From NCBI GenBank assembly GCA_017399695.1, contig JAFQBK010000015.1, positions 22,852 through 86,851 on the forward strand: 64,000 nucleotides of DNA. The letters run 5' to 3'. Positions 31,834 to 49,615 of this stretch are shown here, piece by piece. Every line of letters starts with the position of its first letter. Positions within the stretch are counted from its first letter, which is position 1. Made by a program: the position numbers and the translations under genes. The notes below the pieces were generated by a model. The model made no database searches and was not told the DNA's origin. It was given only the letters and a program-made list of their open reading frames with translations. This stretch comes from Clostridia bacterium. GTDB taxonomy: Bacteria > Bacillota > Clostridia > UBA1381 > UBA9506.

Positions 31834-32310
31834 TTATCTGCTAATGGAAATAATTTTAATCTGAAATTCGCCATTTGGGGACTCAACACTGACCGTATCG
31901 CCTGCTTTTGCGCCGATTAAAGCTTTACCTACCGGGGATTCATCAGATAACTTATTTTGATTCGGATTTGCTTCCGTTGAGCCTACAATCATATATTCCA
32001 TTTCCTCATCAAAATCGATATCTAAAACTTTTACCTTACATCCCAAGGTAACCACATCGGTTGAAATATCATCATTATCAATGATTTTTGCGTTTTTCAG
32101 CATTTTTTCAAGCTTCAAGATACGCATTTCAACTTCTGCCTGCTCGTTTTTTGCTTCGTCATACTCCGCATTCTCGGATAAATCACCAAAACCGAGCGCA
32201 ACCTTTATTTTTTCGGAGATTTCTTTTCTCTTTTGCGTTTTTAAGTATTCCAGTTCTTCTTCCCGTACTTTTAACCCTTCATAGGTTAAAATAATTTCTT
32301 TTTCTGCCAA
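31834..32310 (-). CDS. greA: transcription elongation factor GreA
   Basis: 158 aa. N-terminal coiled coil with [13 protein letters not shown] and a C-terminal FKBP-like domain. Confidence 0.9.
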
Positions 32311-32441
32311 TCTAATTCACCTTTCTTGCATATTCCTTCCTTTATAATAGGAAGAAACTCGTTTATTCGTTAAAATTTCTAACTGATATAAAACGATATA
32401 ATAATACTAAGTCAGTATTATATTCTTCTTTTCATCGTTTG

Positions 32442-33338: not shown

Positions 33339-33403
33339 CTATTTATATATGATACCGTATTGTATGTAAAAAAACGCAAAAAAAGAACTGAAAAATCAGT
33401 TCT

Positions 33404-34009: not shown

Positions 34010-35112
34010 CAGCGCATTCTGACCGGAAGCACGATAAACAGAAAATCATCGCCCTCTGCCGGCATAATCATCGTCGGATTGACCGGAGTAGAGAAGCTGA
34101 ATTTAATTTCTTCACAATCGCAGTTTTTAAATGCATCCATCAGATAACGGGGATTAAACGCGATTTCAATCGGTTCGCCCTCCATATCAACGCTGAATTT
34201 ATCCTTCACCTTACCAACAACTGTTTCACAGTTAATAAGAACATTATCATCTTCAATTTTAAGTACAACGTGCGCTTTGGTGGTTTCATTGACAATCAAA
34301 GCCGCACGATCAATAGAATCCAAAATTTTCTTGGTTTTTGTCGTGATGGTCAGCGTATTTTTATGACGGCAGACAGAACGATAGTCCAAATATTCTCCGT
34401 CAATCAAGCGGGTAATCATGATACAGCTTTTTAAGTTAATCTGTGCATTTTTCGGAGTTAATAAAACTTCGATTTCTTCATCCGTATCGCCTAAAACAGA
34501 CAAAAGCTCTTTTGCTGTTTTCCCCGGCATAATGAATTTCATAACGCCGCGGTCAGCGATTTCTTCTTTTCGGATAGCAAGGCGGTAACCATCGCAGCCA
34601 ACCATATGAAATTCGTCATTTTCAATATCAAAATAAAGACCGGAAAGCTGCGGCTTAATATCCGTCTGTGCCAAAGCATAGATGGTTTTTCTGATCATAT
34701 CTTTTAAAACGGATTCTTTGATAACAAAAGAACTGTCATGCTCAACGACCGGCAGACGCGGAAATTCATCCGCTTTTGCGGTGGAGAAGTCAAATTTTGC
34801 ATTTCCGCAGGAAAGAGTGATGACTTCGTTTTCACTGACTTCGATTAAAACATCATCTTCAAAATCAGGCAATTTTTTCACTGCAGTAGAAAAGAGGTTT
34901 GCTTTTACCACAACCGCACCTGCTTTTTGAACCTCAGCATCAATGGAAATATCAATTCCAAGCTCTAAATTATTACTCAAAAACTGAAGCTTTCCCTCTT
35001 TTGCTTCGATATAAATTCCCTCTAAAATACTTAAAGTCGATTTTACGGCAACTGCACGCTCAGAAATGGAAATTGCATAGACCAAATCCCGTCTTTTACA
35101 TTTAACAATCAT
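34009..35112 (-). CDS. dnaN: DNA polymerase III beta subunit (sliding clamp)
   Basis: 367 aa with a three-domain clamp pattern: MIVKCKRRDL...LEGIYIEA..., NPRYLMDA near the C-terminus and a ...LPVRM tail. Confidence 0.9.
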   Translation of the reverse strand: MIVKCKRRDLVYAISISERAVAVKSTLSILEGIYIEAKEGKLQFLSNNLELGIDISIDAEVQKAGAVVVKANLFSTAVKKLPDFEDDVLIEVSENEVITLSCGNAKFDFSTAKADEFPRLPVVEHDSSFVIKESVLKDMIRKTIYALAQTDIKPQLSGLYFDIENDEFHMVGCDGYRLAIRKEEIADRGVMKFIMPGKTAKELLSVLGDTDEEIEVLLTPKNAQINLKSCIMITRLIDGEYLDYRSVCRHKNTLTITTKTKKILDSIDRAALIVNETTKAHVVLKIEDDNVLINCETVVGKVKDKFSVDMEGEPIEIAFNPRYLMDAFKNCDCEEIKFSFSTPVNPTMIMPAEGDDFLFIVLPVRMR

Positions 35113-35143
35113 GGTAAACCTCCGTTTGTTACTGCTTATTTCA

Positions 35144-35580
35144 ATAAAAAAAATAATATATATTCATTGTACCATAAATAAACAAAAAATTCAATTTTTT
35201 TTGCAAAAAAACAAGCTTTTTTAAATATATAATAATAAAAATATAGTAGTAATAGTAGTAGTATTTGTGGAAAGTGTGGATAAGTGTTTTTTATGTAGAA
35301 AATGAAAGGAAAAAAGGGTGTTAACAAGCTGTCAGTAAGTGTGTGGATAAAAAAAGTAATTAACAGACAAAAAATACCATTTTACAGGAAATGGAAAATA
35401 AAAAATCTATAAACAGCTCGTTCACAGGGAATGAAAGAGTTGATAACAAAATGCTGTGGAAAACCATCATAGATGCGATAAAAACGGGAAAAAAACGAAA
35501 AAAGAAAAGTCATTTAAAAACAGAAAAACGCATAAAACCGCGAAAAAATTATCAACAAGTTATCCACAGGCTGTGAATAA
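35144..35580. other. candidate oriC: DnaA-box cluster plus AT-rich unwinding region
   Basis: Perfect TTATCCACA/TGTGGATAA boxes at 35275-35283, 35342-35350 and 35560-35568. One-mismatch boxes at 35455-35463, 35549-35557 and 35572-35580; a two-mismatch box at 35266-35274. AT-rich runs at 35144-35165 and 35221-35262. Gene orientation diverges here. Confidence 0.6.
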
Positions 35581-35719
35581 TGCGTAAAATCAACAAAAAC
35601 CGTCATTTTTCGGTTGACTTTTGGCACGAAAAAATATAAAATAAAATGGTATACATATAAGAAGAAACTCATTTTTTATTATTAGATAAAATAAAGCAAA
35701 ATCAGATGGGAGAAAAGCG

Positions 35720-37015
35720 ATGAATTACTTTCAGAAAGAAATCGAATGTATGCCTCGTGAGGAGATGAAAAAGCTCCAGAACGAAAAGCTTGTAAAAGCG
35801 ATAAATTATACTTATGAAAATTCCGCATTTTATAAAAAGCGTTTCGATGAAGCGGGCATCAAGCCGGGAGATATTAAATCAATCGAGGACCTTCGTAAAA
35901 TTCCGTTTACCACGAAGCAGGATTTTACCGATAACTATCCTTTTGGCTTATTTGCGCGCCCGATGAAGGATATCGTAAGAATCCATGCGTCTTCGGGAAC
36001 CACGGGAAAACCGAAGGTTGTCGGATATACAAAGCATGATATGGAAATTTGGTCTGATTTGATTGCGCGCTTAGTGGTAATGGCAGGCGGCAGCAATGAA
36101 GATATCGCGCAGGTAGCGTTCGGCTACGGCTTATTTACCGGCGGTTTTGGTCTGCATCAGGGTTTAGAGAAAGTCGGCGTAACCGTTGTTCCGATGTCCT
36201 CGGGCAATACGGAAAAGCAGATTATGCTGCTGCGTGATTTTGGTGCGACAATTTTGGTTGCAACACCGACTTATGCGCTGCATATTGCAGAAACGATAGA
36301 AGAAATGAATGTGCCGAAAGAGGAAATTAAACTGAAAATCGGTATGTTCGGCGGCGAAGGTCATACCGAAGAAATGCGCGCAGTGCTCGAAAAGAAGCTC
36401 GGTATTATTTCAACGGAAAACTACGGTCTTTCCGAGGTAATGGGTCCCGGTGTTGCCGGCGAATGTATCTATAAAAAAGGTCTTCATATCGCAGAGGATT
36501 GCTTTATTATTGAAATTATCAATCCGGAAACGGGCGAGCCGGTGCCGGACGGAGAGCTTGGCGAGGTCGTTATTACGACGCTTGAAAAAGAGGGTATCCC
36601 GATTCTGCGCTATCGTACCCACGATATTTCCTATATCATCTCCGAGCCGTGTGCGTGTGGCAGAACGAGCCGCCGCTTAGCTAAAATGCAGGGCAGAACA
36701 GATGATATGCTGATTATTAAGGGAGTCAATGTGTTCCCGTCGCAGGTAGAAAGCGTGCTTTTGGGAATTGACCATATCAGCCCGTATTATCAGCTGATTG
36801 TCAGCAAAAAAGGGTATACCGACCAGCTGGAAATCAAGGTAGAGCTTGCGGATGACAGCTTACTCGAAAGCTTTGGTCAGCTGGAGGCACTCGAAAAAGA
36901 AATTCAGCATAAATTGCACGTTGTTTTGGGGCTGGTTGCCAAAATCAGACTGGTTGCGCCGAAATCCATTGAGCGCACCACCGGAAAAGCAAAACACGTC
37001 ATTGATAACAGATAA
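35720..37015 (+). CDS. paaK: phenylacetate--CoA ligase (PaaK family), copy 1
   Basis: MP.EEM..LQ.EKL N-terminus, SSGTTGKPKVVGYT AMP-binding motif, about 431 aa. Confidence 0.85.
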   Translation: MNYFQKEIECMPREEMKKLQNEKLVKAINYTYENSAFYKKRFDEAGIKPGDIKSIEDLRKIPFTTKQDFTDNYPFGLFARPMKDIVRIHASSGTTGKPKVVGYTKHDMEIWSDLIARLVVMAGGSNEDIAQVAFGYGLFTGGFGLHQGLEKVGVTVVPMSSGNTEKQIMLLRDFGATILVATPTYALHIAETIEEMNVPKEEIKLKIGMFGGEGHTEEMRAVLEKKLGIISTENYGLSEVMGPGVAGECIYKKGLHIAEDCFIIEIINPETGEPVPDGELGEVVITTLEKEGIPILRYRTHDISYIISEPCACGRTSRRLAKMQGRTDDMLIIKGVNVFPSQVESVLLGIDHISPYYQLIVSKKGYTDQLEIKVELADDSLLESFGQLEALEKEIQHKLHVVLGLVAKIRLVAPKSIERTTGKAKHVIDNR

Positions 37016-37041
37016 ATTTAATTGGTAAAGGATGAAAAGTG

Positions 37042-38775
37042 ATGAAAAAATTGATGCTTGGAAATGAAGCAGTCGCACGCGGAGCTTTTGAAGCAGGCGT
37101 TACGGTTGCCTCATCTTATCCGGGAACTCCCAGTACGGAGATTACGGAATTTATCGCAAAATATGATGAAATTTACTCGGAGTGGGCGCCGAATGAAAAG
37201 GTTGCGGTAGAAACGGCAATCGGCGCATCCACCGCCGGCGGTCGTGCACTTTCTGCAATGAAGCACGTGGGCCTGAACGTGGCTGCAGACCCGCTCTTTA
37301 CGGTTTCCTATATCGGTACCAACGGCGGTCTCGTTTTAGTTGTTGCCGATGACCCGGGAATGCACAGCTCGCAGAATGAACAGGATTCCCGTCATTACGC
37401 GATTGGCGCGAAAGTGCCGATGCTCGAGCCTTCCGACTCGGCTGAATGTAAGGAATTTACGAAAAAAGCATTTGAAATTTCCGAAGAATTTGATACACCC
37501 GTGATTCTGCGCCTGACGACGCGTGTCGCTCATTCGCAGAGCTTGGTTGATTTAGAAGACAGACAAGAGGTCGGCGTGCGCGAGTATAAAAAAGACATTG
37601 CGAAAAACGTGATGATTCCGGCAAACGCAAGACCGAAGCACGTGATGGTAGAGGAGCGTACGAAAAAACTCGCTGCGTTTGGCGAAACCTCGGATTTAAA
37701 CCGCGTGGAAATGAGAGATACCAAAATCGGTATCATCGCTGCAGGTATTTCGTATCAGTATGCGCGCGAGGCGTGCCCGACAGCATCCATCCTAAAGCTC
37801 GGTATGATTCATCCGATGCCGGAACAGCGCATCCGCGATTTTGCATCCAAAGTGGATACGCTCTATGTGGTAGAACAGCTCGACCCCGTGATTGAAACCT
37901 ATGTAAGAGGCTTGGGAATTTCCGTGATTGGAAAAGAAAAATTTACACTGCTCGGCGAATATTCGGCGCAGATGCTCCGTGAAACCATTTTGGGCGAAAA
38001 AGCGAAAGAGACCAAAAAGGCAGAGGAAATCATTCCGGTTCGTCCGCCGGTGATGTGCCCTGGTTGCTCACACAGAGGTGTATTTTATGTGCTCAAAAAA
38101 CTCGGACTTACCGTAACGGGCGATATTGGCTGTTATTCGCTCGGTTGTGCCAAACCCTTAGAGGCGATTGATACGATTGTTTGTATGGGCGGTTCGATTA
38201 CGGCGGCACACGGTATGGAAAAGGCACGCGGCAAAGACTTTGCCAGAAAAACCGTTGCGGTTTTGGGTGATTCGACCTTTATCCATTCGGGTATTACGGG
38301 GCTCATTGATGTGGTTTATAACAAGGGTACGACCACAACCATTATTTTAGATAACTCCATTACGGGTATGACGGGACACCAGCAGAATCCGTCCACCGGC
38401 TTTACCATTAAAAATGAGCCGACCCGCAATGTTGATCTTGAAATGCTCTGCCACGCCGTCGGTGTAGACCGCGTCGTGATTGCAGACCCCTTTGATGTGG
38501 ACAATTTTGAAAAGGTGGTCAAAGAAGGAATCGCGGCAGAAGAGCCGTCCGTCATTATTGCGCAGCGTCCCTGTGCGCTCATTAAAAAAGCGGGCTATAC
38601 CGGACTTTATGTGATTAACGACAAGTGTAAGAACTGTAAGCTTTGTATGAAGCTGGGTTGTCCGGCGATTTCGCTGACAGAAAAAGGCCCGAAAATCGAC
38701 GAAACGCTTTGCGTTGGCTGCGGACTGTGCCCGAATGTATGTAAATTCGGTGCGATTGAGCGCGTAGAAAAGTAA
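37042..38775 (+). CDS. iorA: indolepyruvate:ferredoxin oxidoreductase alpha subunit
   Basis: MKKLMLGNEAVARGAFEAGV..., TPP-binding region and C-terminal 2x[4Fe-4S] (CKNCKLC...CVGCGLCPNVC). About 577 aa, followed by iorB. Confidence 0.9.
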   Translation: MKKLMLGNEAVARGAFEAGVTVASSYPGTPSTEITEFIAKYDEIYSEWAPNEKVAVETAIGASTAGGRALSAMKHVGLNVAADPLFTVSYIGTNGGLVLVVADDPGMHSSQNEQDSRHYAIGAKVPMLEPSDSAECKEFTKKAFEISEEFDTPVILRLTTRVAHSQSLVDLEDRQEVGVREYKKDIAKNVMIPANARPKHVMVEERTKKLAAFGETSDLNRVEMRDTKIGIIAAGISYQYAREACPTASILKLGMIHPMPEQRIRDFASKVDTLYVVEQLDPVIETYVRGLGISVIGKEKFTLLGEYSAQMLRETILGEKAKETKKAEEIIPVRPPVMCPGCSHRGVFYVLKKLGLTVTGDIGCYSLGCAKPLEAIDTIVCMGGSITAAHGMEKARGKDFARKTVAVLGDSTFIHSGITGLIDVVYNKGTTTTIILDNSITGMTGHQQNPSTGFTIKNEPTRNVDLEMLCHAVGVDRVVIADPFDVDNFEKVVKEGIAAEEPSVIIAQRPCALIKKAGYTGLYVINDKCKNCKLCMKLGCPAISLTEKGPKIDETLCVGCGLCPNVCKFGAIERVEK

Positions 38776-38808
38776 TAAGCAGAGCGAAAAGCGGAAAGGA
38801 TGAAGAAA

Positions 38809-39372
38809 ATGAATATTATGATTGTCGGTGTCGGCGGTCAGGGAACCCTGCTTGCCAGCCGTATTATCGGTGCCGCTGCGATTAATTTAGGCGGCGATGT
38901 CAAGCTTTCTGAGGTGCATGGAATGAGCCAGCGCGGCGGAAGCGTTGTTACCTATGTGCGCTACGGCGAAAGTGTGGCGTCTCCCATTATCGAAGAGGGT
39001 GAGGCTGATGTTATTTTAGCCTTTGAACAGCTTGAGGCATACCGCTACATCTCCTACTTAAAAGAGGGCGGCTCCTATATTGTAAATACACAGAAAACCG
39101 ACCCGATGCCTGTCATTACCGGTGCGATGGAGTACCCTGCGGACATCCTGGCGAAGATGGAGGGTATGGGAATCCGCGTAACCGCCTGCGACGCACTGTC
39201 CCTTGCCAAAGAGGCAGGAAATATTAAGGCGACGAACGTGGTGTTAATCGGCGTGATGGCAAAGCACACCAATATTTCCAAGGAAGAATGGGAAGAGGCG
39301 ATTCGCCAGACCGTTCCGGCTAAATTTTTAGAAGTAAACCTCGCCGCATTCCGTTTGGGCTACGAGGCATAA
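38809..39372 (+). CDS. iorB: indolepyruvate:ferredoxin oxidoreductase beta subunit
   Basis: MNIMIVGVGGQGTLLASR N-terminus typical of IorB / 2-oxoacid:Fd oxidoreductase gamma-like subunits. The ATG at 38809 has better RBS spacing than 38800. Confidence 0.8.
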   Translation: MNIMIVGVGGQGTLLASRIIGAAAINLGGDVKLSEVHGMSQRGGSVVTYVRYGESVASPIIEEGEADVILAFEQLEAYRYISYLKEGGSYIVNTQKTDPMPVITGAMEYPADILAKMEGMGIRVTACDALSLAKEAGNIKATNVVLIGVMAKHTNISKEEWEEAIRQTVPAKFLEVNLAAFRLGYEA

Positions 39373-39415
39373 TTTTGGCACAGGCGATGTGCAATTCATA
39401 AAAGAGGTGTTTTTA

Positions 39416-40720
39416 ATGGCAAAAATCTGGAACCCGGAAGCAGAATGTATGAGCCGGGAAGAAATGCATAAGCTGCAGAGTGAGCGCTTGTGCAGTAAAA
39501 TTAAAGAGATTTATGAAAATGTGCCGTACTACCGCGCAAAAATGGATGAAAAAGGGGTTAGCCCTGCGGATATCCGTTCGGTAGACGATCTTTCCCTGCT
39601 CCCGTTTACGAGCAAGCAGGATTTGAGAGAAGCATATCCTTATGGTCTGTTTGCAAGACCCTTAAAAGATATTGTTGAAATTCACGCCACCAGCGGTACG
39701 ACCGGAAAGCAGGTCATTGCCGGTTATACCAAAAATGATATTGCCCTTTGGGGTGAGGTCATGGCGCGCGTACTTACGGCGGCAGGCGGCGATGAAACAT
39801 CTGTCGTGCAGTCTTCCTACGGCTATGGACTCTTTACGGGCGGTTTGGGTGCGCATTATGGCGCGCAGACGATGGGAGCAATGGCAATCCCGACCTCTTC
39901 GGGCAACACCGAGCGTCAGATTCGCCTGATGAAGGACCTCGGCACGACGATTCTTTGCTGTACCCCGTCCTATGCGACCTTTATCGGGGAAACCATTCGC
40001 GATATGGGACTCGACATCAGTGAATTTAAGTTAAAAGCCGGCGTGTTCGGCGCAGAGCCCTGGACGGTAGAAATGAAGCGAGAGCTTGAAAAGCTGTTAA
40101 ATATTAAAACCATTGATGTTTACGGTCTGACCGAAATTATCGGACCGGGTGTCGGCTTCTCCTGCGAAAAAGAATGCGGCATCCATATCAGTGAGGACCA
40201 CTTCATTCCGGAAATCATCGACCCCGAAACGGGCGAAAACCTGCCCGACGGAACGCTTGGCGAGTTGGTATTTACCTGCGTAACCAAAGAGGGACTGCCG
40301 ATGATGCGTTATCGTACGAGAGATATTACCTCGATTACGCACGAGCCGTGTGAGTGCGGCAGAACGTTGGTGCGAATGGGCAAAATTCAGGGACGCTCCG
40401 ACGATATGCTGATTATCCGTGGTGTCAACGTATTCCCGTCGCAGGTTGAGAGTGCGCTGTTAGACATCACCGATGTAGCGCCTTACTATATGCTCGTGGT
40501 TGACCGTGAGGGAACCCGCGATACTTTAGAGGTTCAGGTGGAAATGTCGCCCGAATTCTTCTCCGACGAGGTGCGTCAGCTGGAAAAACTCGAAAAAGAA
40601 ATTTATGAGAAATTAAAGAGCGCGCTGGGCCTCGCTACCAAGGTCAAACTGGTAGCTCCCAAGAGTATTGCCCGCAGTGAGGGCAAAGCCGTCCGCGTGA
40701 TTGATAAACGTAAAAAATAA
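39416..40720 (+). CDS. paaK: phenylacetate--CoA ligase (PaaK family), copy 2
   Basis: Paralog of 35720-37015 (TSGTTGKQVIAGYT; same architecture). The ATG at 39416 gives MAKIWNPEAE. Confidence 0.85.
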   Translation: MAKIWNPEAECMSREEMHKLQSERLCSKIKEIYENVPYYRAKMDEKGVSPADIRSVDDLSLLPFTSKQDLREAYPYGLFARPLKDIVEIHATSGTTGKQVIAGYTKNDIALWGEVMARVLTAAGGDETSVVQSSYGYGLFTGGLGAHYGAQTMGAMAIPTSSGNTERQIRLMKDLGTTILCCTPSYATFIGETIRDMGLDISEFKLKAGVFGAEPWTVEMKRELEKLLNIKTIDVYGLTEIIGPGVGFSCEKECGIHISEDHFIPEIIDPETGENLPDGTLGELVFTCVTKEGLPMMRYRTRDITSITHEPCECGRTLVRMGKIQGRSDDMLIIRGVNVFPSQVESALLDITDVAPYYMLVVDREGTRDTLEVQVEMSPEFFSDEVRQLEKLEKEIYEKLKSALGLATKVKLVAPKSIARSEGKAVRVIDKRKK

Positions 40721-40738
40721 TAGTTAGGAGTTGATTGT

Positions 40739-41170
40739 ATGTTTGTGAAACAGATTTCGGTTTTTGTTGAGAATGCAAGAGGAACCCTTTCCCGTGTCAC
40801 AGAGGTTTTGGCGGAAAATGGCATCAATATCCGCGCGCTTTCGATTGCCGACACCACAGACTTTGGTATCCTGCGCCTCATTGTGCAGAATCCGGATAAG
40901 GCGGTCGAGGTACTCAGGGCAAACGAGATTACAGTAAAAGCAACCGACGTTTTGGTAGTAGAGATTGACGACCAGCCGGCAGGACTTCATAAGGCGCTGT
41001 CTGCGCTTCGTGATGCCGATGTTCAGGTGGAATATATGTATGCGTTTGTTACGAAAAAGGAAGATGAGGCTTATGTCATCTTAAAATCCGACAACCCGCA
41101 AAAAGCCATGGCGGCACTCACCGCAAAAGGCGTGCGCGTGGTTCCGGCAAAGGATGTTTACGAGCTGTAA
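40739..41170 (+). CDS. ACT-domain (amino-acid-binding) protein
   Basis: 143 aa, two ACT-like beta-alpha-beta-beta-alpha-beta units (QISVFVENARGTLSRVTEVLAENGINI). Confidence 0.7.
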   Translation: MFVKQISVFVENARGTLSRVTEVLAENGINIRALSIADTTDFGILRLIVQNPDKAVEVLRANEITVKATDVLVVEIDDQPAGLHKALSALRDADVQVEYMYAFVTKKEDEAYVILKSDNPQKAMAALTAKGVRVVPAKDVYEL

Positions 41171-41190
41171 ACCGCAAAAATAAAAATAGA

Positions 41191-41218
41191 CTGCCCACCC
41201 GTTCGGGTGGGTAGTTTT
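41191..41218 (+). terminator. intrinsic terminator
   Basis: CTGCCCACCC-gttc-GGGTGGGTAG followed by TTTTG. Confidence 0.7.
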
Positions 41219-41229
41219 GTGAGGAAATT

Positions 41230-42498
41230 ATGAATTACGAACAGTTATTAAAAGAAAAATATGAAATTCCCGCATCGGTACTCAAACTGGCGGAGGAGGC
41301 GGAAGCGGAGCTTGCGGATAAGTTTTTCGAAATTTCTAAAACCGTTTCTTTTAATCAGACCAAGGTGCTTTCCGCCTTCCGTGAAGCGCGGGTCAGCGAG
41401 CAGCATTTGGGCATTACCACAGGCTATGGCTACGATGATGTGGGCAGGGACACCTTAGATGAAATCTATGCCGATGTGTTCGGCGCAGAAAGTGCACTGG
41501 TGCGCCACAGTATCGTTTCAGGTACGCACGCACTCGCGCTGTGCCTGTTCGGCGTTTTGCGTCCGGGCGATGTGATGGTTTCCGTGACGGGAAAGCCATA
41601 CGATACGCTCGAAGAGGTCATCGGTATTCGCGGTACAGGCAACGGCTCACTTCGTGACTGGGGCGTCGATTACCGAGAGGTTGCGCTTCTTCCCGATGGA
41701 ACGCCCGATTTTGAGGCGATAAAACAGGCGATTACACCCGAAGTAAAACTGGTAGAAATTCAGCGCTCGAAGGGCTATGACTGGAGAAAATCACTTTTAA
41801 TTGAAGACATCCGTGCAATTTGCGACTGCGTGCATTCGGTGCGCTCTGACGTGATTTGTATGGTGGATAACTGCTACGGCGAATTTGCAGAGGAACAAGA
41901 GCCGTGTGAGGTGGGTGCAGACCTTGTGGTCGGCTCTCTCATCAAAAATCCCGGCGGCGGTCTCGCACAAACCGGCGCATATATCGCAGGCAAAAAAGAC
42001 TTAATTGAGCAGGTTTCCTACCGCTTAACCTCGCCCGGCATCGGTGCAGAGGTCGGTGCGACGCTCGGGATGAACCGCAGTATGTATCAGGGCTTTTTCA
42101 TGGCGCCTCATGTGGTTGGCGAGGCGATTAAAACCGCGGTTTTTGCGGCTAAAATGCTCGAAAAACTGGGATACCCCGTCTGTCCGACATCTGATGAGGC
42201 ACGCGGCGATATCATTCAGGCGGTCAAACTCGGCGACAGCGAAAAGCTCTGCGCGTTTTGCCAGGGGATTCAGGCAGGCTCGCCCGTGGATGCGTATGTT
42301 ACGCCGATGCCGTGGGATATGCCGGGCTATGAAAATCAGGTGATTATGGCGGCAGGCACCTTTGTTTCCGGCGCAAGCATCGAGATTTCTGCCGATGGTC
42401 CTATCCGCGAGCCTTATATTGCGTATATGCAGGGCGGGCTTACTTATGAGAGTGGGAAGCTTGCGGTCATGTGTGCAGTGAGTAGGATTTTGAAATAA
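41230..42498 (+). CDS. methionine gamma-lyase-family PLP protein (YnbB / aluminium-resistance-like)
   Basis: 422 aa. The TGYGYDDVGRDTLDEIYADVFGAE...SGTHA pattern is remembered from the PF06838 family. Confidence 0.7.
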   Translation: MNYEQLLKEKYEIPASVLKLAEEAEAELADKFFEISKTVSFNQTKVLSAFREARVSEQHLGITTGYGYDDVGRDTLDEIYADVFGAESALVRHSIVSGTHALALCLFGVLRPGDVMVSVTGKPYDTLEEVIGIRGTGNGSLRDWGVDYREVALLPDGTPDFEAIKQAITPEVKLVEIQRSKGYDWRKSLLIEDIRAICDCVHSVRSDVICMVDNCYGEFAEEQEPCEVGADLVVGSLIKNPGGGLAQTGAYIAGKKDLIEQVSYRLTSPGIGAEVGATLGMNRSMYQGFFMAPHVVGEAIKTAVFAAKMLEKLGYPVCPTSDEARGDIIQAVKLGDSEKLCAFCQGIQAGSPVDAYVTPMPWDMPGYENQVIMAAGTFVSGASIEISADGPIREPYIAYMQGGLTYESGKLAVMCAVSRILK

Positions 42499-42509
42499 AT
42501 TTATGATAT

Positions 42510-42544
42510 AAACGAGCAAGGAGATTTTTCCTTGCTCTTTTTTG
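42510..42544. terminator. GAGCAAGG-family intrinsic terminator (T5)
   Basis: AAACGAGCAAGG-agattttt-CCTTGCTCTTTTTT. The T-tract is on the + strand, serving the ynbB-like gene. Confidence 0.7.
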
Positions 42545-43025
42545 TGTGTCGGTTTTTACGATTTTCATTATTATCAGTCATTAACGCCTCCGGCGGGGGT
42601 TGTACTTCTCTTTCGGCCTTGTTTCAATATATTAGCTCTCAGGTCCTGCCGGACGGGCCTTCTTTTGATGCCAAAAGAAGCAAAAGCTCCGGGGGGTCAG
42701 ATTCCCCCCGGACCCCCTAAACTGCCAAGGCTCTGCCTTGGAACCGTTACCACTTACTGCAAAACGATACCTAATATAAATTTATATCTTCCCTGCGCTT
42801 TTGGCAGGTTGTTAACGCTTGTTTTCCGGCGAGTGTGTGCGGCGCAAAAAACGGCGGCGGCAAGCAGAATAAAAATGCATGATCTGCGCCCTACGGCAAG
42901 AGGTTTTCGTCCCTTTTGCCGATACAAAAGGGACCCCCGCCGGAGGCGTTCGTGACTGGAAATATAGAAAAGCGTGGATATCGGCGCACAAAATAAAAAG
43001 AGCAAGGTTTTCTCCTTGCTCTTTT
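42510..43025 (-). repeat. interspersed hairpin-rich element, copy C (complete, with both terminal inverted arms)
   Basis: Arms at 42541-42600 and 42933-42993 are inverted (about 45/60 matches). Core at 42643-42751 is identical to copy D. Bracketed by terminators T5 and T6. Confidence 0.85.
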
Positions 43026-43026
43026 T
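42995..43026. terminator. GAGCAAGG-family intrinsic terminator (T6), serves bofA
   Basis: AAAAAGAGCAAGG-ttttct-CCTTGCTCTTTTT, 3 nt from the bofA stop. Confidence 0.7.
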
Positions 43027-43028
43027 AT

Positions 43029-43295
43029 TTACATTCCCACAATCCATTTCACAAGAATCAACAGCAAAACACCGGGGAGACCCAAAAGACCGGCGATGGT
43101 GGCGGTTGCGATATTGATGCCGATAAAAAAGCCGGTGGGGGCAAAAATCCAGTTAAATATGTAGAGTCCCAAGCCGCCCAAAAGGCTGTTAAAGCCAAGC
43201 CATAAAACCGTTTTGAGCGGACGGAAAAAGATACGGCACAAGACCAAAACCAAGACGCCGGCTAAAATATACGCCGAAACTTCAGCAATTCCCAT
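43029..43295 (-). CDS. bofA: pro-sigmaK processing inhibitor BofA
   Basis: 88-aa two-TM protein with ...NSLLGGLGLYIFNWI...INIATATIAGLLGLPGV.., as in BofA. Follows a yaaL-like gene, as in Bacillus. Confidence 0.7.
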   Translation of the reverse strand: MGIAEVSAYILAGVLVLVLCRIFFRPLKTVLWLGFNSLLGGLGLYIFNWIFAPTGFFIGINIATATIAGLLGLPGVLLLILVKWIVGM

Positions 43296-43623
43296 ACGGC
43301 ACACATCCTTTCTCATCCGGATGAAGACGCGGGGTAAAAAAGCAGGGGTTTTCCGCCTCATCTTTTTTTGCGCAGGATAAAAAATAATTCAGCTTGGTTT
43401 CCTCCGCTTTTATCATATAAATATAGTATTCCTTGACCGCCTCGTCCGTCACAAAATCAAAATTTTCACGGACTAAATCGAGAGCGTTTTTTGCCTGTGC
43501 AATGCGCTCGGTATATTCATAGTTTTTACGGTCGCGCAATTCTTTTTCTTTTTTTGCGAGGCGTGCCGCTTTCCACTGGTTAAGCAGCAGCAGACCTTTT
43601 CGTTCCAGTGATGCAAGCATCAT
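43282..43623 (-). CDS. DUF2508 (YaaL-like) protein
   Basis: About 113 aa. The pattern ...AKNALDLVRENFDFVTDEAVKEYYIYMIKAEETKLNYFL resembles YaaL. GGAGGA RBS before the ATG at 43623. Confidence 0.6.
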   Translation of the reverse strand: MMLASLERKGLLLLNQWKAARLAKKEKELRDRKNYEYTERIAQAKNALDLVRENFDFVTDEAVKEYYIYMIKAEETKLNYFLSCAKKDEAENPCFFTPRLHPDEKGCVPYGNC

Positions 43624-43745
43624 ATTCCATCCTCCGTATTTCTTTATTTTCACTTATAATATAAGCAGAACCCGACCAAAATATGCCCATTTTTTACGCA
43701 AAAAGGAAAAACCGCCCGAGAAAGCCCCGGACGGAGGAGTAAAAA

Positions 43746-43817
43746 TTATTTCATTTTGAAAATTGTTTTCAGGATTCCCCCGAAAAACCGCGGACATTTC
43801 AGCACAACAACCTTCAT
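43746..43817 (-). CDS. spoVM: stage V sporulation protein M (SpoVM), 23 aa
   Basis: Hand translation gives MKVVVLKCPRFFGGILKTIFKMK, which matches the SpoVM pattern MKxxx[IL]KxP[KR]F[LF]GGI (B. subtilis MKFYTIKLPKFLGGIV...). Strong GGAGGGG RBS 5 nt upstream. Below the 60-aa track cutoff. Confidence 0.6.
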   Translation of the reverse strand: MKVVVLKCPRFFGGILKTIFKMK

Positions 43818-43838
43818 TTTAGCCCCTCCTTTTTCAAA

Positions 43839-43988
43839 TTAGCTGCAAAGCCAGCAAAAGGCGATAAATAAGATGAGCACGCCCTCGAAAATGACCAACC
43901 AGATTGGCGGCAATAAAAGACCTGCAAACATCCCCAAAGAAAATGCGATGGCACAAAGCCCCCACAGCCTGAAACGCAAACACCGCAT
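43839..43988 (-). CDS. small hydrophobic peptide (49 aa), putative
   Basis: Hand translation gives MRCLRFRLWGLCAIAFSLGMFAGLLLPPIWLVIFEGVLILFIAFCWLCS. GAAAGGATGG RBS. Ends 21 nt before spoVM. More plausible than the overlapping 79-aa track ORF 43814-44053. Confidence 0.3.
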   Translation of the reverse strand: MRCLRFRLWGLCAIAFSLGMFAGLLLPPIWLVIFEGVLILFIAFCWLCS

Positions 43989-44076
43989 ACAACCATCCTT
44001 TCGCTGCTTTCTTTACTAACAGTATATGGCGGAGGGGGAAATGTGTGATTCAAAAGGGACGTAAAAAATGCGCGAG

Positions 44077-44512
44077 TTTGTGCGACGATGTTTACGGTTG
44101 TTATTATCAGTTACCAACGCCTTCCGCGGGAGTCCCTTTTGTATCGGCAAAAGGGACGAAAACCTCTCGCCGCAGGGCGCAGATCATGCATTTTTATTCT
44201 GCTCGCCGCCGCTTGCCGGAAGACAGAAATGAGTTTAACAACCTGCTTTTATCGCACTTTCGTAATAAATTTATATTAGGTATCGTCTTTTGGTGCGTGG
44301 TAACGGTTCCAAGGCAGAGCCTTGGCAGTTTAGGGGGTCCGGGGGGAATCTGACCCCCCGGAGCTTTTGCTTCTTTTGGCATCAAAAGAAGGCCCGTCCG
44401 GCAGGACCTGGGAACAAATAGATTTGAATTAGGTGGAAAGAGGGGTCCGGTCCCCGCGGAAAGAGTTTGCAACTAAAACAAAAAAAGAGCCGTGATAAAA
44501 TCACGGCTCATC
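44077..44512 (+). repeat. interspersed hairpin-rich element, copy D (degenerate distal arm)
   Basis: Outer arm TTTGTGCGACGATGTTTACGG..., 5'-module hairpin at 44132-44157, core at 44299-44407, degenerate inner arm GGTCCCCGCGGAAAGAG. Followed by the secF terminator hairpin at 44487-44509. Confidence 0.8.
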
Positions 44513-44524
44513 AATGAACAAATA

Positions 44525-45442
44525 TTATCTTTTATGCAATTTGCGGCGTTTTAATTTATCCTGCCACTTTTTAAGACCTGCCCAAACCGGAGCAGCCAAT
44601 AAAACGGAGGAATAGGTTCCTGCCAAAAGACCGACAATCAGCGGAATGGTGAACTGACGAATGGAAGATACGCCGAGAGCAAACAGCATCACAACCGGAA
44701 GTAGCGTAGTGATCGTGGTGCAGATAGAACGGGAAAGCGTCTGTTTTACGCTGTTATTGACCGTTTCATTAAAGTTACCATGCTTTGCACGCTTGTAGTT
44801 TTCGCGCACACGGTCAAACACAACAATCGTGTTGTTGATGGAGTAACCGATGATGGTGAGGATTGCTGCAATCAAGGTCGTATTCAGCGGAATACGGAAG
44901 ATTGCGCAGAACGAAAGCATAATTGCGCAGTCGTGAAGCAGAGCAACAATCGCAGCCACACCCGTCTTAAACTCAAAACGAATGGTGATATAAAGGAGCA
45001 TCAAAAGGGATGCAATCAGTGTTGCCTGTACTGCCTGTGCCTGCAGCTCGCCGCCAACCGTCGCGCTGACGTTGTCCGTTGCAAGCATTGCCTCCGGCGC
45101 AAGTTCATATTTTTCCAAAATCTTATTCTGAATCTGGTCACGAATATCGTTTTCAACGGTTACGGTCTGAATCACAACCTGGTTGTTATCCGAACGCTGA
45201 ACCACCGGGTCGCCGACCGATGCGCCTGCAACCTCTTTGACTAAGTCCTTGACCTCGTCAAGATTTAAGCCCTCCGCTTTTTCGCCGAAATCAACCGTCA
45301 TACTCATACCGCCGGCAAAGTCAATATCCATTGCAAAGCCGCCGTTTACAATCAAAAAGATTCCACCCAAAAGGATGACGAGGATAGAGATGGCCCAATA
45401 GATTTTTGCGTGTTCAACAATTTTCAAGCTCTTTTGTAACAT
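44525..45442 (-). CDS. secF: protein translocase subunit SecF
   Basis: 305 aa, six-TM SecF layout (DFAGG, IVVFDRVRE), directly downstream of secD. Confidence 0.9.
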   Translation of the reverse strand: MLQKSLKIVEHAKIYWAISILVILLGGIFLIVNGGFAMDIDFAGGMSMTVDFGEKAEGLNLDEVKDLVKEVAGASVGDPVVQRSDNNQVVIQTVTVENDIRDQIQNKILEKYELAPEAMLATDNVSATVGGELQAQAVQATLIASLLMLLYITIRFEFKTGVAAIVALLHDCAIMLSFCAIFRIPLNTTLIAAILTIIGYSINNTIVVFDRVRENYKRAKHGNFNETVNNSVKQTLSRSICTTITTLLPVVMLFALGVSSIRQFTIPLIVGLLAGTYSSVLLAAPVWAGLKKWQDKLKRRKLHKR

Positions 45443-45445
45443 CTC

Positions 45446-46741
45446 TTACGCCTCCTTTCTCTTCGAAATGCCATAGAGCCAGGTGTTGGTGATTTTCATA
45501 TTCACCATCTGGCGCAGCAGGAATTTCGTAACAACGATTGCCGTAAACATACTGACGACCGTACCGATGCCCAGGGTAATTGCAAATCCCTGAATCGGAC
45601 CCGTACCGAAGTAGTAAAGAACGACAGCCGCAATGAGTGTTGTGATGTTGGCGTCTAAAATTGCGATGAATGCGCGGTCAAAACCGGCAGAAACAGCCGC
45701 TTTTAAGGTTCTGCCAACCGCGAGCTCTTCCTTCATTCTTGCAAAGATAATGACGTTTGCGTCAACTGCCATACCGACCGACAGGATAATACCTGCGATA
45801 CCCGGCAGGCTTAGGTTGATGCGCAGCCAGCTCATCAAAAATGCAACAATGCCGATGTATGCAACCAAGGAAATATCAGCTAAAAGTCCCGGCAGACGAT
45901 ACACCAAAAGCATGAACAGCATAATCAGAAGAATACCGATACCTGCAGCAACGAGGCTGGTTTCCAGCGAGTGCTCACCTAAGGTAGGTCCAATGCTTCT
46001 AAGCTCTACATCCTTAATGGAAAACGGCAGATTACCTGAGTTAATCAGGGTTGCCAGCTCACTGGTTTCGGAGCTGTCCGTAAAGCCACCGGAAATGATG
46101 CAGTTTGCGGTGTTGATTGCATTATCAACCAACGGCTGACTGATAACAGTTTCATCCAGCATAATCGCAATATAGTTTTTGTTTTCCGTTTTTAAGGTTG
46201 CCGCTTTCTGCGTAGCTTCGGTAAATTTCTGTACGCCAGAATCATTTAAGGTCAGCTCAACATAGTGCTGATTCGGTCCCATTTCCTCCGTCTGACCGTA
46301 GCGGGCTGCGGCATTTTTTACGTCCGTGCCCTCCAACACAACATTTCCGTCAGCATCACGGAAGGTCAGCTTTGCCGTCTGTCCGAGCGTCTTGACCGCT
46401 TCCTGCGGGTCCTGAATTGCCGGAATTTCTACGCGCACCTTCTTGTCTCCCTGACGGGAAACGGTAGCCTCGGTATAGCCGAGTGCACTTAAGCGCTTAC
46501 GCAGAACATTGACCACAGATTCCATCTCTGCATCTGTTGCCGAGTCTGTGTCTGCCTCATAAAGAATCGATGAGCCTCCGACTAAGTCAAGGCCCTGACG
46601 AATACCATAATCTTCATCGAGCGCAGACGGATAGCTTACATGCCAGCCGGCGATATTAAAGTTCATTCCGAACAGGAATACGCTTGCACCCAATGCAATA
46701 ATCAGTATTACGATAACTAATTTGGTAATACTCTTACCCAT
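45446..46741 (-). CDS. secD: protein translocase subunit SecD
   Basis: 431 aa with GLDLVGG and GPTLG motifs and an LPGIAGIILSVGMAVDANVIIF TM block. Confidence 0.9.
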   Translation of the reverse strand: MGKSITKLVIVILIIALGASVFLFGMNFNIAGWHVSYPSALDEDYGIRQGLDLVGGSSILYEADTDSATDAEMESVVNVLRKRLSALGYTEATVSRQGDKKVRVEIPAIQDPQEAVKTLGQTAKLTFRDADGNVVLEGTDVKNAAARYGQTEEMGPNQHYVELTLNDSGVQKFTEATQKAATLKTENKNYIAIMLDETVISQPLVDNAINTANCIISGGFTDSSETSELATLINSGNLPFSIKDVELRSIGPTLGEHSLETSLVAAGIGILLIMLFMLLVYRLPGLLADISLVAYIGIVAFLMSWLRINLSLPGIAGIILSVGMAVDANVIIFARMKEELAVGRTLKAAVSAGFDRAFIAILDANITTLIAAVVLYYFGTGPIQGFAITLGIGTVVSMFTAIVVTKFLLRQMVNMKITNTWLYGISKRKEA

Positions 46742-46921
46742 TTTCGTTTTCCTCCTTTGTTATAATCACATAGAATAATTATATATATTTATTTACGTTT
46801 CGTCAACCATTATATGTAATTTTAATCAAAATGTAATGCTTTTATGGGTCGTTCCCGCTTGACAGAGAAAGGGAAAAAGACTATAATAAAGTTGTCGAAT
46901 TTTTACGAAAAGAGGGAGACA

Positions 46922-47335
46922 ATGAAAAAATTTATAGACGAGTTTAAAACCTTTGCACTCCGCGGTAACGTGGTGGACTTAGCAGTCGGCGTTATTATCG
47001 GCGGTGCGTTCCAGACGATTGTAAAATCGCTCACGAATGATATCTTGATGCCCCTGATTGGTCTGTTTGTCAGAACCGACTTTCAGGAAGTTGCCGTCAA
47101 GGTGATGGATGTGGATATCCGCTATGGTGCATTTATCTCCGCCGTCATCAACTTCTTCATTATGGCGTTTATTATTTTCCTTTTGGTCAAGGGAATCAAC
47201 AAACTGACCAGCCTTGGCAAAAAGAAAGAGGAAGTGATCGAGGCAGTAACCACCAAGACCTGCCCGTTCTGTAAGAGCGAGATTGCGATTGAGGCAACGA
47301 GATGCCCGCATTGTACCTCCGTACTCGAAGAGTAA
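46922..47335 (+). CDS. mscL: large-conductance mechanosensitive channel MscL with a C-terminal zinc-ribbon tail
   Basis: MKKFIDEFKTFALRGNVVDLAVGVIIGGAF is the canonical MscL N-terminus. The C-terminus has CPFC...CPHC. Confidence 0.85.
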   Translation: MKKFIDEFKTFALRGNVVDLAVGVIIGGAFQTIVKSLTNDILMPLIGLFVRTDFQEVAVKVMDVDIRYGAFISAVINFFIMAFIIFLLVKGINKLTSLGKKKEEVIEAVTTKTCPFCKSEIAIEATRCPHCTSVLEE

Positions 47336-47398
47336 AAAGATAAAACGCTTGCGAATGTTGTTCGCAAGCGTTTTTCACCGAAAAGAAAGGGGGAAATA

Positions 47399-48298
47399 AT
47401 GAGAGTGCTTTGTTGTAATGAGAAGGGAACCTTTACGGTTTTGGTTGTTTCCGACCCGCAATGCGAGGAATTTTTTCAGTGGGAAGAGGCCGGAAATGAG
47501 CTTGCGCAGTTAGTGGAAAAGGCTGCGCCTGATTTTGTTTTGATTAACGGGGATATGGAATCGAATTGCCGCATCACGAAAGAGGGTTGGGAAATTTTTA
47601 TTCAACCGCTGCTTTTGCACAATATTCCGTGGTCAACCACCAACGGAAATCACGATCCTTTTATTCCTGAAATAGCTCAGCTTTACCATTCCTTTCCCGG
47701 TTGTTATAATCAGTTGATTGAAGAAACGGATGAATATTTTGAAGCGGAGCGCCCGCAAAATTACTGCCTGCCGGTGTATGCAAAGGATTCTGACCGCGTG
47801 CGGTTTGCTGTGTACGGGATGGATACGGGCGTGATGACCGAAGATGGTTGGGACGGTCTTTCAGAAAAACAGATTGCGTGGTATCGCCGCGAGTCAGACC
47901 GCTTAAAAGAAGCAAATGACGGAAAGTGCGTGCCGGCTCTTTTCTGTTGCCATATCCCCTTTGCTGAGGTGACAAAAATGGAGGTTATGGACGGTGTGAT
48001 TAACGAAGCAATCGGACATACCTCCATCGCGAACGACCATGGTGCCTTTGCGGCGATGAAAGCGCAGGGCGATGTAAAAATTGCGGTGTTCGGCCATTCG
48101 CATCTGATTAATCAAGTGGGTATGTATGAGGGAATCATTTTGGGCTTTGCCGGAAAACTTTCTACCGGAAGCTACCACGATGAGCTTTCCCGTGGCGGCA
48201 GAGTGGTACGTTTTTCGCAGGAACAGCCCGAGAAAGTCTGTACGTATTGGCTGGGAACGCTCCCTACCTCCAAAGACCAAAAAGAAGTAAGAGTATAA
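47399..48298 (+). CDS. calcineurin-like metallophosphoesterase
   Basis: INGDME, GNHD and GHSH motifs in canonical order. Confidence 0.7.
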   Translation: MRVLCCNEKGTFTVLVVSDPQCEEFFQWEEAGNELAQLVEKAAPDFVLINGDMESNCRITKEGWEIFIQPLLLHNIPWSTTNGNHDPFIPEIAQLYHSFPGCYNQLIEETDEYFEAERPQNYCLPVYAKDSDRVRFAVYGMDTGVMTEDGWDGLSEKQIAWYRRESDRLKEANDGKCVPALFCCHIPFAEVTKMEVMDGVINEAIGHTSIANDHGAFAAMKAQGDVKIAVFGHSHLINQVGMYEGIILGFAGKLSTGSYHDELSRGGRVVRFSQEQPEKVCTYWLGTLPTSKDQKEVRV

Positions 48299-48346
48299 AA
48301 TATGAGCCGCGGTTTTTTGCGGCGATGGATATAAAGGAGAATCAAT

Positions 48347-49615
48347 ATGACTTTTCAAAGAACCGATATTCTTTTGCCGGATTTTTCTGCCGACCAAGAG
48401 AAAATGCAAAAATGGAGCGTCGTTGCCTGCGACCAGTATACCTCCGAGCCGGAGTACTGGGATGCGGTATCTGCTCTTGTGGGCGAGGATGCCTCCACGC
48501 TGAATCTGACCGTTCCGGAAATTTACTTAAATGATGCCGATATTGATGAGCGCATCCAAAGAACCAACGCAAAAATGGAAGAATATAAAGAAAAAGGCTT
48601 GTTCACCGAGTACAAAAACAGCCTGATTTTTGTGGAAAGAACATTAAAAAACGGCGCAAAACGCTACGGCGTGGTCGGTGCGGTGGATTTGGAGGACTAT
48701 GATTTCTCCGTTGGCTCGAAAACCAAAATCCGTGCAACCGAGGGCACGGTGGTTTCCCGTATTCCGCCTCGGCTTCGTGTCAGATGTGGGGCAAGCGTCG
48801 AGCTTCCGCACATTATGATTTTGATTGATGATGCTGCGAAAACCATCATCGAGCCGCTTTCCGGCAAAACAAATGAATTTGAGCTTTTGTATGATTTCGA
48901 CTTGATGCAGGATTCCGGTCACATCAAGGGGTACAAAATGTCCGATGCGGCTTGTGATTTGATGGAAAAACAGCTGCTTTCGCTTGAAGATTTGGATACA
49001 TTTAATCAAAAATACGGCGTTTCGATGGATTCTGCCTTAGTGTTTGCGATGGGTGACGGAAACCATTCTTTAGCAACCGCAAAAACCCATTATGAAAATC
49101 TGAAAAAAGAGCTTGGCGATGTGGCAAAAGAATCGCCTGCCCGTTATGCGCTTTGTGAGTTGGTAAACCTGCACGACTCCTCCCTCGAATTTGAGGCAAT
49201 CCACCGCGTGGTATTTGATGCAAGCGGTGAGGCGTTTTTAGACGCTTTAGCAAAGGAATACGAGCTTTCCTTTGATGAAAATGATGAGGGACAAAAGTTT
49301 GAGCTTGTCTTATCCGGCGAGAAGAAAACGGTCATCGTCAAAAACCCGAAAGAGTATTTAACCGTTGCCACTGTGCAAAAAGCGCTTGATAGCTTTGTTT
49401 CAGAAAACGGCGGAGAGATTGACTATATCCACGGCGAAGATGTCGTTTTGTCTCTTGCAAAAGATGAGAAAAACTTCGGCATTCTTTTTGATGCGATGGA
49501 TAAAGCAGATTTGTATAAATCCGTCATTTTAGACGGTGCACTCCCGAGAAAGACCTTCTCGATGGGCGAGGCGTGCGATAAGCGGTTCTATATCGAGGCG
49601 AGAAAGATTAAATAA
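48347..49615 (+). CDS. DUF1015-family protein
   Basis: 422 aa. ILLPD...WSVVACDQYTS and MGDGNHSLATAK motifs are remembered from DUF1015. Confidence 0.7.
   Translation: MTFQRTDILLPDFSADQEKMQKWSVVACDQYTSEPEYWDAVSALVGEDASTLNLTVPEIYLNDADIDERIQRTNAKMEEYKEKGLFTEYKNSLIFVERTLKNGAKRYGVVGAVDLEDYDFSVGSKTKIRATEGTVVSRIPPRLRVRCGASVELPHIMILIDDAAKTIIEPLSGKTNEFELLYDFDLMQDSGHIKGYKMSDAACDLMEKQLLSLEDLDTFNQKYGVSMDSALVFAMGDGNHSLATAKTHYENLKKELGDVAKESPARYALCELVNLHDSSLEFEAIHRVVFDASGEAFLDALAKEYELSFDENDEGQKFELVLSGEKKTVIVKNPKEYLTVATVQKALDSFVSENGGEIDYIHGEDVVLSLAKDEKNFGILFDAMDKADLYKSVILDGALPRKTFSMGEACDKRFYIEARKIK

Follow-up and report, generated by a model that had tools for sequence, protein, structure and literature searches.

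The DNA analysed here, called the window, is a stretch of 64,000 nucleotides (nt) from an uncultured Clostridia bacterium (assembly GCA_017399695.1, contig JAFQBK010000015.1, positions 22,852 to 86,851). Between the 3′ ends of a methionine gamma-lyase family gene and bofA, at positions 42510–43028, the window carries a structured repeat element. Repeat finding, self-BLAST and alignment recovered four large copies of the element (A, B, C and D) and one mini copy in the window. Inverted arms are common to all five copies, and a core of 109 nt is present in the four large ones. No named family fits the element and there is no homologue outside one uncultured species, thus the family is new. [quoted passage not shown]

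Copies of the repeat element

The copies and the related solo fragments in the window are as follows.

8307–8690, + strand: copy A, with left arm, small hairpin h, shortened middle and core (8485–8593), without right arm; a GAGCAAGG hairpin forms its 3′ end at 8651–8682
23115–23697, − strand: copy B, with left arm (23627–23697) and core (23204–23312), without right arm; an extra insert of 132 nt at ~23403–23534 holds a small palindromic unit (23479–23544)
27815–27990, + strand: mini copy, ~135 nt, consisting of the left and right arms with hairpin h and nothing else; one hairpin borders it towards the HIT gene (~27793–27817) and a GAGCAAGG-type hairpin towards serS (27959–27983)
42510–43028, − strand: copy C, two-armed, ~460 nt between two terminator-like hairpins, core at 42643–42751
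42540–42600: right arm of copy C, with the conserved inner repeat AACGCCTCCGGCGGGGGT at its end
42933–42993: left arm of copy C, with the small hairpin h (CCCTTTTG-loop-CAAAAGGG) just inside it at ~42910–42933
44077–44512, + strand: copy D, with left arm, core (44299–44407) and degenerate right arm; listed at 44077–44486 beside the native secF terminator (44487–44509), inserted directly after the terminator
17447–17581: solo fragments like the arm terminus and hairpin; 17447–17517 is the reverse complement of the left flank/terminus of the mini copy
57782–57816, + strand: solo terminus-like fragment directly 3′ of a terminator hairpin, equal to 17547–17581

The window has exactly four occurrences of the 16-mer with which the core begins, at 8485 (+), 23297–23312 (−), 42736–42751 (−) and 44299 (+), with a chance expectation of 0.05. 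Pairwise identity of the cores in the window is 107–109 of 109 positions, with the lowest value, 107, found between A and B. The arms of copy C (42540–42600 versus 42933–42993) are 61 nt long and 79% complementary, and a weaker complementarity, 73% over 112 nt, extends through the flanking hairpins at 42510–42542 and 42996–43028. The original prediction, made from the letters of the DNA, had described four recurrences plus a mini form of ~135 bp, inverted arms in copy C and a core at these four sites, and all of these are recovered; the core identity of 108–109/109 that it gave is slightly too high.

A sixth copy is situated outside the window, on a 717-nt metagenome contig (L006). This copy is full length, ~640 bp, and deletion derivatives of the full-length form range down to the 135-bp arms-only form and a ~70-bp palindromic unit. 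Two arms are found in C, L006 and the mini copy and a degenerate second arm in D, while A and B carry a single arm. In copy A, the stop codon of the upstream open reading frame (ORF; 8313–8315) falls within the arm terminus. Copy B adjoins the native terminator (23694–23722) of a 443 amino acid (aa) GCS2-family gene (23725–25056). The sequence TTTGCCTTGTGTGGTGTGCGCATTTT is present at both 17547 and 57782, and the short repeats at 17447–17581 and 57782–57816 probably represent isolated ends of this family or of a related one.

Module order and folding

The order of modules is given in the orientation of copies A and D, using the full-length copy L006.

Module 1: T-rich terminus, consensus TTTT(A)TTTTGTGCGCCGAT
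Module 2: loosely conserved arm stretch/spacer, ~45 nt
Module 3: G+C-rich inner inverted repeat AACGCCTCCGGCGGGGGT, nearly invariant
Module 4: small hairpin CCCTTTTG-loop-CAAAAGGG
Module 5: conserved middle block
Module 6: 132-nt insert containing a small palindromic unit, confined to B and L006
Module 7: block TTAACAACCTGCC...CGCAG
Module 8: invariant block ATAAATTTATATT
Module 9: 109-nt core of three hairpins
Modules 10–11: variable tail, followed by the inverted right arm

Derivatives of the full-length form arise through deletion between GCACACAYTCGC direct repeats. Copy C lost the 132-nt insert by a deletion of this type, and the deletions in D and A are larger than that of copy C.

The original prediction had described the element as hairpin-rich, and this is borne out by comparison with shuffled sequences, where the fold of copy C gives z = −12.5 and −11.9 on the two strands. 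The mini copy is a foldback hairpin with a DNA fold of −22.7 kcal/mol (z = −2.9). The whole element folds more stably on the antisense strand. The core consists of three perfect hairpins/palindromes.

H1: CCAAGGC-NNN-GCCTTGG, 7 bp; the loop varies between copies (AGA, GGA, ATA)
H2: 9-bp G+C stem followed by GCTTTTGCTTCTTTT
H3: CTTCTTTTG-GCAT-CAAAAGAAG, 9 bp, A+T-rich

H2 scores as an intrinsic terminator in every copy when read in the sense orientation of the element. The sense strand of the core folds ~10 kcal/mol better than the antisense strand through G-U pairs.

Blockwise conservation

Mean pairwise identities were computed among A, B, C, D and L006 and are listed in module order.

Outer arm (43 nt): 68%
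Inner arm and small hairpin: 96%
Middle block: 91%
TTAACA...CGCAG block: 85%
First spacer: 40%
ATAAATTTATATT block: 100%
Second spacer: 61%
Core (106–109/109): 98.7%
Tail: 66%

The only variable positions of the core are those in the H1 loop and one pair beside H2. The termini share the consensus TTTTGTGCGCC, and only the first 11–14 nt of the outer arm form a recognisable consensus. Neutral decay of transposon copies would be uniform, and therefore the interior blocks are under selection, either for the propagation of the element itself or to the benefit of the host. The core and the inner arm are near-identical between copies while neighbouring segments drift; thus both appear to be functional. 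Most probably the core and the inner repeat are cis-acting sites or folds needed for propagation.

Coding, RNA and promoter predictions

The element is non-coding. Its pseudo-ORFs share a peptide of ~32 aa that is rich in Pro and Gly, beyond which the frames differ between copies, and inspection by eye shows no ribosome-binding site before the one ATG that they share. Protein searches with the pseudo-ORFs covered 5.8 billion clusters and included an exhaustive HMMER scan of 1.84 billion representatives. The 137-aa antisense pseudo-ORF of copy C, which spans the core, has two protein matches, P0001 and P0002, and these are translations of copy A and of the L006 copy; the 97-aa sense-strand pseudo-ORF has no match in these large protein collections. 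A coding element is therefore rejected on the basis of the Pro/Gly-rich peptide, the diverging frames, the lack of an apparent ribosome-binding site and the lack of homologues beyond the element copies themselves. The original prediction had read the element as non-coding and the shared peptides of the ORF list as element DNA read in frame, and both statements agree with these results.

Several RNA and regulatory candidates were considered as well. The entire window shows no Rfam match at the gathering threshold, and the region of copies C and D (42400–44600) gives only chance-level matches at E-values up to 10. Genes resembling tRNA or tmRNA are not found by ARAGORN. Within the element a conserved promoter of the sigma-70 type is lacking, and a sigma-D-like GCCGATAT in the arm terminus was dropped because it has no −35 element and the motif is poorly conserved. 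A retron, an omega-RNA guide scaffold and an attC site were dropped since there is no neighbouring reverse transcriptase, nuclease or integrase gene, and a type I toxin-antitoxin system was dropped since a small hydrophobic ORF is lacking. Double changes are found in only 2 of the 62 consensus pairs. Pairing a spacer with its cognate tail gives no gain in stability over non-cognate pairs, as 82 of 120 permutations do as well.

These results bear on an explanation in which the conserved interior (the core, perhaps together with the middle block) acts as a structured RNA useful to the host, either a multi-copy small RNA or a 3′ untranslated region module that terminates or stabilises the upstream transcript, with the arms being incidental or only the vehicle of its spread. 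The sharp common boundaries of the core and its 98.7% identity between paralogues, as against 40–66% in the adjacent spacers, would fit this explanation, as would the confinement of core variation to the H1 loop and the pair beside H2. The better fold of the core on the sense strand and the terminator score of H2 with its T-tract in every copy point the same way, and copy A must be co-transcribed with the upstream ORF because the stop codon lies in the arm. However, the orientation relative to the upstream gene is inconsistent, A, B and C being sense whereas D and the L006-type copies are not, and a terminator separates B, C and the mini copy from the upstream gene. The missing promoter, the lack of covariation, the more stable antisense fold of the whole element, and the absence of an Rfam match or of a homologue outside one species also speak against a host RNA, and we consider it unlikely.

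Position at terminators

The surroundings of the copies show a common pattern. Convergent gene ends surround four of the five window copies; the fifth, copy D, is situated between the secF terminator and the 5′ side of the next operon, in line with the placement in 3′ intergenic space between convergent or tandem genes that the original prediction had noted. Where a flank is judged native, the element begins immediately 3′ of the terminator T-run, as seen at secF, where the flank is conserved in locus L008 of a congener described below, and at the GCS2 gene.

Several of the terminators near the element have a stem in common.

42514–42537: flanking hairpin of copy C, GAGCAAGG-loop-CCTTGCTC, after the methionine gamma-lyase family gene
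43000–43021: flanking hairpin of copy C after bofA, with the same GAGCAAGG/CCTTGCTC stem and a different loop
31803–31823: greA terminator, a solo GAGCAAGG stem with no element attached; the stem of the orthologue in locus L015 differs

In total, six terminator-like hairpins share the GAGCAAGG/CCTTGCTC stem (8655–8678, 23134–23155, 27959–27983, 31803–31823, 42514–42537 and 43000–43021), two of them with one mismatch, and their loops are unrelated. Five of the six touch element copies and the sixth is the plain greA terminator. The two-armed copies are bracketed by hairpins of the same stem, GAGCAAGG twice at copy C and GGACTG...CAGTCC twice at L006/L014. A role of the GAGCAAGG stem as a DNA-uptake sequence was set aside, since outside the hairpins there is just one further occurrence of the 8-mer.

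Host range and copies in other strains

The proteins encoded beside the element are identical to those of an uncultured "Clostridia bacterium" metagenome-assembled genome (MAG) from a ruminant-gut MAG set. The closest named relatives of the seryl-tRNA synthetase carry Clostridia bacterium, Ruminococcaceae or Oscillospiraceae labels. An exact search with a 23-mer of the core gave no match in 185,579 species-representative GTDB genomes, JGI metagenomes and viral contigs. A 22-mer of the arm hairpin has a single match in the species genomes, in a Nitrospirales MAG, which is judged to be chance, and a 22-mer of H3 was found in two unrelated contigs of the JGI metagenomes that share that hairpin alone. 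On one unrelated JGI contig, L018, the H3 hairpin CTTCTTTTGATGCCAAAAGAAG is found three times (481–507, 1031–1057 and 9682–9708), probably a coincidence. BLASTN of the full-length copy against plasmids and phages showed no similarity, and a covariance model of the core found no diverged homologue in the congener loci. Thus, as far as these searches reach, the family is restricted to one uncultured species of ruminant-gut Clostridia.

In strains with 98.7–100% identity to the window, the same copies are found at unchanged sites: L007 and L013 have A, L014 has the mini copy, L001–L004 have C, and L001, L002 and L010 have D. Copy C is 100% identical in the independent assemblies L001 and L003 and 99.6% identical in L002. 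Five contigs end inside a copy (L003, L004, L010, L014 and L022).

Comparison with a congener

The congener (GCA_045536855.1) is represented by one 27-kb contig (loci L008 and L015) with 82–88% DNA identity to the window. It shares the blocks serS...dnaN...methionine gamma-lyase and DUF1015...secDF...bofA with the window, and no large copy of the element is found in its 27 kb of shared genes. At the site of copy D, both flanks are conserved in L008, and only a ~70-nt palindromic unit follows the T-run of the secF terminator. Homology links this unit to the small one nested in B and L006, and the terminus TTTTGTGCGCC is common to them; therefore the family is present in the genus in the form of small units. 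Within the reach of the data, only the species of the window has the large form with the core.

The gene order of the congener departs from that of the window at three of the copy sites: that of the mini copy at the 3′ end of serS, that of copy C at the 3′ end of the methionine gamma-lyase gene, and that of copy B beside the GCS2 gene. In the window, the serS...methionine gamma-lyase and bofA...DUF1015 blocks (27730–43030 and 43029–49615) are inverted or transposed relative to the congener. The window-side junctions of the rearranged blocks that can be inspected all carry an element copy (mini, C and B).

An explanation that gives weight to this setting holds that the copies are non-mobile structural elements of host terminator regions, similar to the REP/BIME units of E. 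coli; the copies would be bound by nucleoid or topology proteins between convergent genes, and gene conversion and segmental recombination would have spread and homogenised them. Four of five copies being situated between convergent genes would be in keeping with such a role. The build is a mosaic with modules present or absent, the core has three perfect palindromes, as expected for the sites of dimeric proteins, and the GAGCAAGG terminator stem recurs even where there is no element; in addition, neither a target-site duplication nor a transposase was found. But the congener has the same genes and terminators without large copies, and a conserved host function is difficult to reconcile with the lack of the family in all other genomes searched. 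Identical sharp block boundaries in all pairs of copies are not what gene conversion would yield, and both foldback arms and mini forms made up of arms alone are typical of mobile repeats. This explanation is thus also thought improbable.

A dimorphic site beside the GCS2 gene

The site of copy B is polymorphic between strains. Contigs with a GCS2 protein 100% identical to that of the window show two arrangements. In the first (L020 and L021) the window-type copy B is found. In the second (L022, L014 and L006) the copy is two-armed, has the opposite orientation and is followed by a different distal flank. The interiors of the two types are ~90–91% identical, while the flanks are 98.8–100% identical; thus the two types are paralogous copies and not a flipped segment. 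The change starts at or just after the T-run of the GCS2 terminator. In the proximal arm, the inner 29 nt are identical between the types and the outer 33 nt differ at 6 positions, and the alignment stops at the inner edge of this arm, at window position 23630. The dimorphism may stem from independent insertions at one target, a transposition-type rearrangement or recombination between copies.

An inverton, in which the 18-bp inner inverted repeats would be recombinase sites and an interior with an orientation-dependent terminator would flip between strains, might be suggested by the two orientations of the interior here, by the end of the alignment at the inner arm edge and by H2 being a terminator in one orientation only, but it is largely refuted and highly improbable: the opposite orientations belong to paralogous copies with differing distal flanks, a second arm is missing from window copy B, a single orientation is seen for A, C, D and the mini copy in every assembly, no recombinase was found nearby, and the copies are situated at 3′ ends rather than upstream of genes.

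Nature of the repeat family

The reading of the copies as a mobile or recombination-prone, MITE-like family would involve an enzyme encoded elsewhere in the genome that moves or copies the element in trans. Such an enzyme would recognise the termini together with the inner repeat, and a partner element encoding it would be bounded by TGTGCGCCGAT...AACGCCTCCGGCGGGGGT. Insertion would take place immediately 3′ of the T-run of an intrinsic terminator, in transcriptionally dead space between gene ends that tolerates insertions. Dispersed copies would then serve as breakpoints or substrates for chromosomal rearrangement, and copies would decay by internal deletion between short direct repeats. Where read-through transcription enters a copy, H2 with the T-tract would act as an orientation-dependent terminator.

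The original prediction had proposed a search for further copies and a comparison with relatives, and the outcome favors a dynamic element: there is a copy outside the window (L006), a dimorphic site, and a congener without a large copy.

Several results weigh against a mobile family of this kind. The terminal repeats of MITEs are normally their best conserved part, and here the outer arm (68%) is among the least conserved parts while the interior core and the inner arm are nearly fixed. One arm is missing from A and from B. Comparison of 20 ORFs of the window with Pfam, together with the precomputed Pfam labels of overlapping loci, revealed neither a transposase nor a recombinase, and no autonomous element or insertion sequence (IS) with matching ends was found. 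A clean pair of filled and empty orthologous sites was not seen, as the congener has a smaller unit at the site of D and its synteny is broken at the sites of C and the mini copy. The sites of A, C, D and the mini copy do not differ among the near-identical strains, so these copies give no evidence of recent movement. No direct repeat of the type of a target-site duplication flanks C, the mini copy or L006. The original prediction had suggested a check for such duplications, and none is discernible: the flanking runs are inverted and not direct, and a duplication is not readable because the inverted repeat itself includes the T-run at one end and the A-run at the other. Target-site duplications can also decay in old copies (PMC10969869).

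A more specific proposal is that the core and the inner repeat form the cis-acting fold of an undescribed mobilisation system that recognises the hairpins of intrinsic terminators and inserts after their T-runs. This is speculative and we regard it as quite unlikely. If true, it would explain the selection on the interior, the brackets of the same stem around two-armed copies and the copies at rearrangement breakpoints. As an equal alternative to such a system, the core may be a new multi-copy structured regulatory RNA.

Relation to known repeat families

MITEs are typically smaller than 500 bp and carry no transposase gene. The copies described here are 135–640 bp in size and have no conserved ORF. 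As in the prokaryotic MITEs that include Correia elements, Chunjie and QMITE1/2 (PMC10969869), the copies are small (0.14–0.64 kb), non-coding, multi-copy and intergenic and have inverted arms; a stable stem-loop and many truncated or internally deleted copies, including those with loss of an arm, are a further likeness (PMC10969869). Size variation and truncation have been described for these MITEs (PMC10969869). In contrast to MITEs, with terminal repeats of 4–30 bp, the arms here are ~60–75 nt long, there is no visible target-site duplication or known parent IS, and the termini are less conserved than the interior, which carries an ultra-conserved module of 109 nt.

The original prediction had called the element MITE-like and found no named family for it. 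The small size, the interspersed distribution and the bounding arms of the first statement stand, whereas a target-site duplication, a cognate IS, the expected pattern of conservation and the right arm of A and B do not. The second stands, since there is neither an Rfam nor an IS match, and the Rfam scan that it had suggested gave nothing at the gathering threshold in the window. By resemblance, "MITE-like" may serve as a fair working label, rather than as an assignment to MITEs.

The REP/BIME sequences of E. coli and the enterobacterial ERIC sequences are similar in that they are palindromic mosaic repeats at the 3′ ends of genes, in many cases where two genes converge. The central inverted repeat of ERIC is highly conserved. 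REP/BIME and ERIC are widespread across a bacterial family and are shorter than the element described here, and their protein partners are gyrase, IHF and, for REP, RAYT transposases. Class C group II introns and IS1397/ISKpn1, the latter found in REP units, target terminator or palindromic hairpins. The element resembles them in having its ends immediately beside intrinsic-terminator hairpins but differs in having no ribozyme, reverse transcriptase, transposase or Rfam intron match.

BOX, RUP and SPRITE (PMC3049150) are Firmicute repeats limited to one species or its close relatives, and are modular, nested and structured. The likeness to these extends to terminator-like sequences, as in SPRITE, and to spurious ORFs (PMC3049150). 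By analogy, the family described here is modular, structured and species-restricted as well, and its palindromic unit is found nested in B and L006 and alone in L008. There is no sequence similarity to BOX, RUP or SPRITE, however, and the element is larger and has its conserved module in the interior, whereas boxA and boxC are terminal. BOX, RUP and SPRITE have been judged parasitic with a low current rate of movement (PMC3049150). In its behaviour the element would appear to be closest to pneumococcal BOX/RUP/SPRITE and to variable, truncated MITE families, and it may be regarded as close to modular repeats (BOX/SPRITE, E. coli BIME) to the same extent as to MITEs.

Small structured interspersed repeats at gene ends are a well known kind, and the current understanding of bacterial repeats is unchanged by this family. 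Its unusual points are the long arms, the inverted pattern of conservation, the sharply bounded core and the association with terminators. An uncultured lineage of rumen Clostridia appears to have recently acquired or expanded a repeat family of its own. The repeats occupy terminator gaps, break metagenome assemblies and coincide with differences in gene order from the congener, and should be useful for MAG curation and strain tracking. The sharply bounded and nearly invariant 109-nt core is a candidate functional DNA or RNA module.

Other features of the window and related loci

Two small ORFs that are kept in the congener are situated between copy D and the 113-aa and bofA genes (~43700–44060, − strand; L008 13668–14109). 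One encodes a membrane peptide of ~48 aa and the other a 23-aa peptide, MKVVVLKCP..., with a strong ribosome-binding site; both are uncalled in L001 and L008. A more distant relative carries, downstream of serS and an acetyltransferase gene, an insertion (L017 6723–14325) that contains two large serine recombinases. This insertion splits a sigma-factor gene and looks skin-like or prophage-like.

Two copies of TGTTTCACGTGAAACA, which we take to match the Firmicute parS consensus, flank the parA/parB genes of the window (29886–29921 and 31762–31797). From these copies and from dnaN (34009–35112), the window is probably near the replication origin. Upstream of a Zip-family transporter gene (16317–17084, − strand) there is a G+C-rich gene-free stretch of 500 nt (17085–17590). 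It has no Rfam match and could be an unannotated leader or regulatory RNA.

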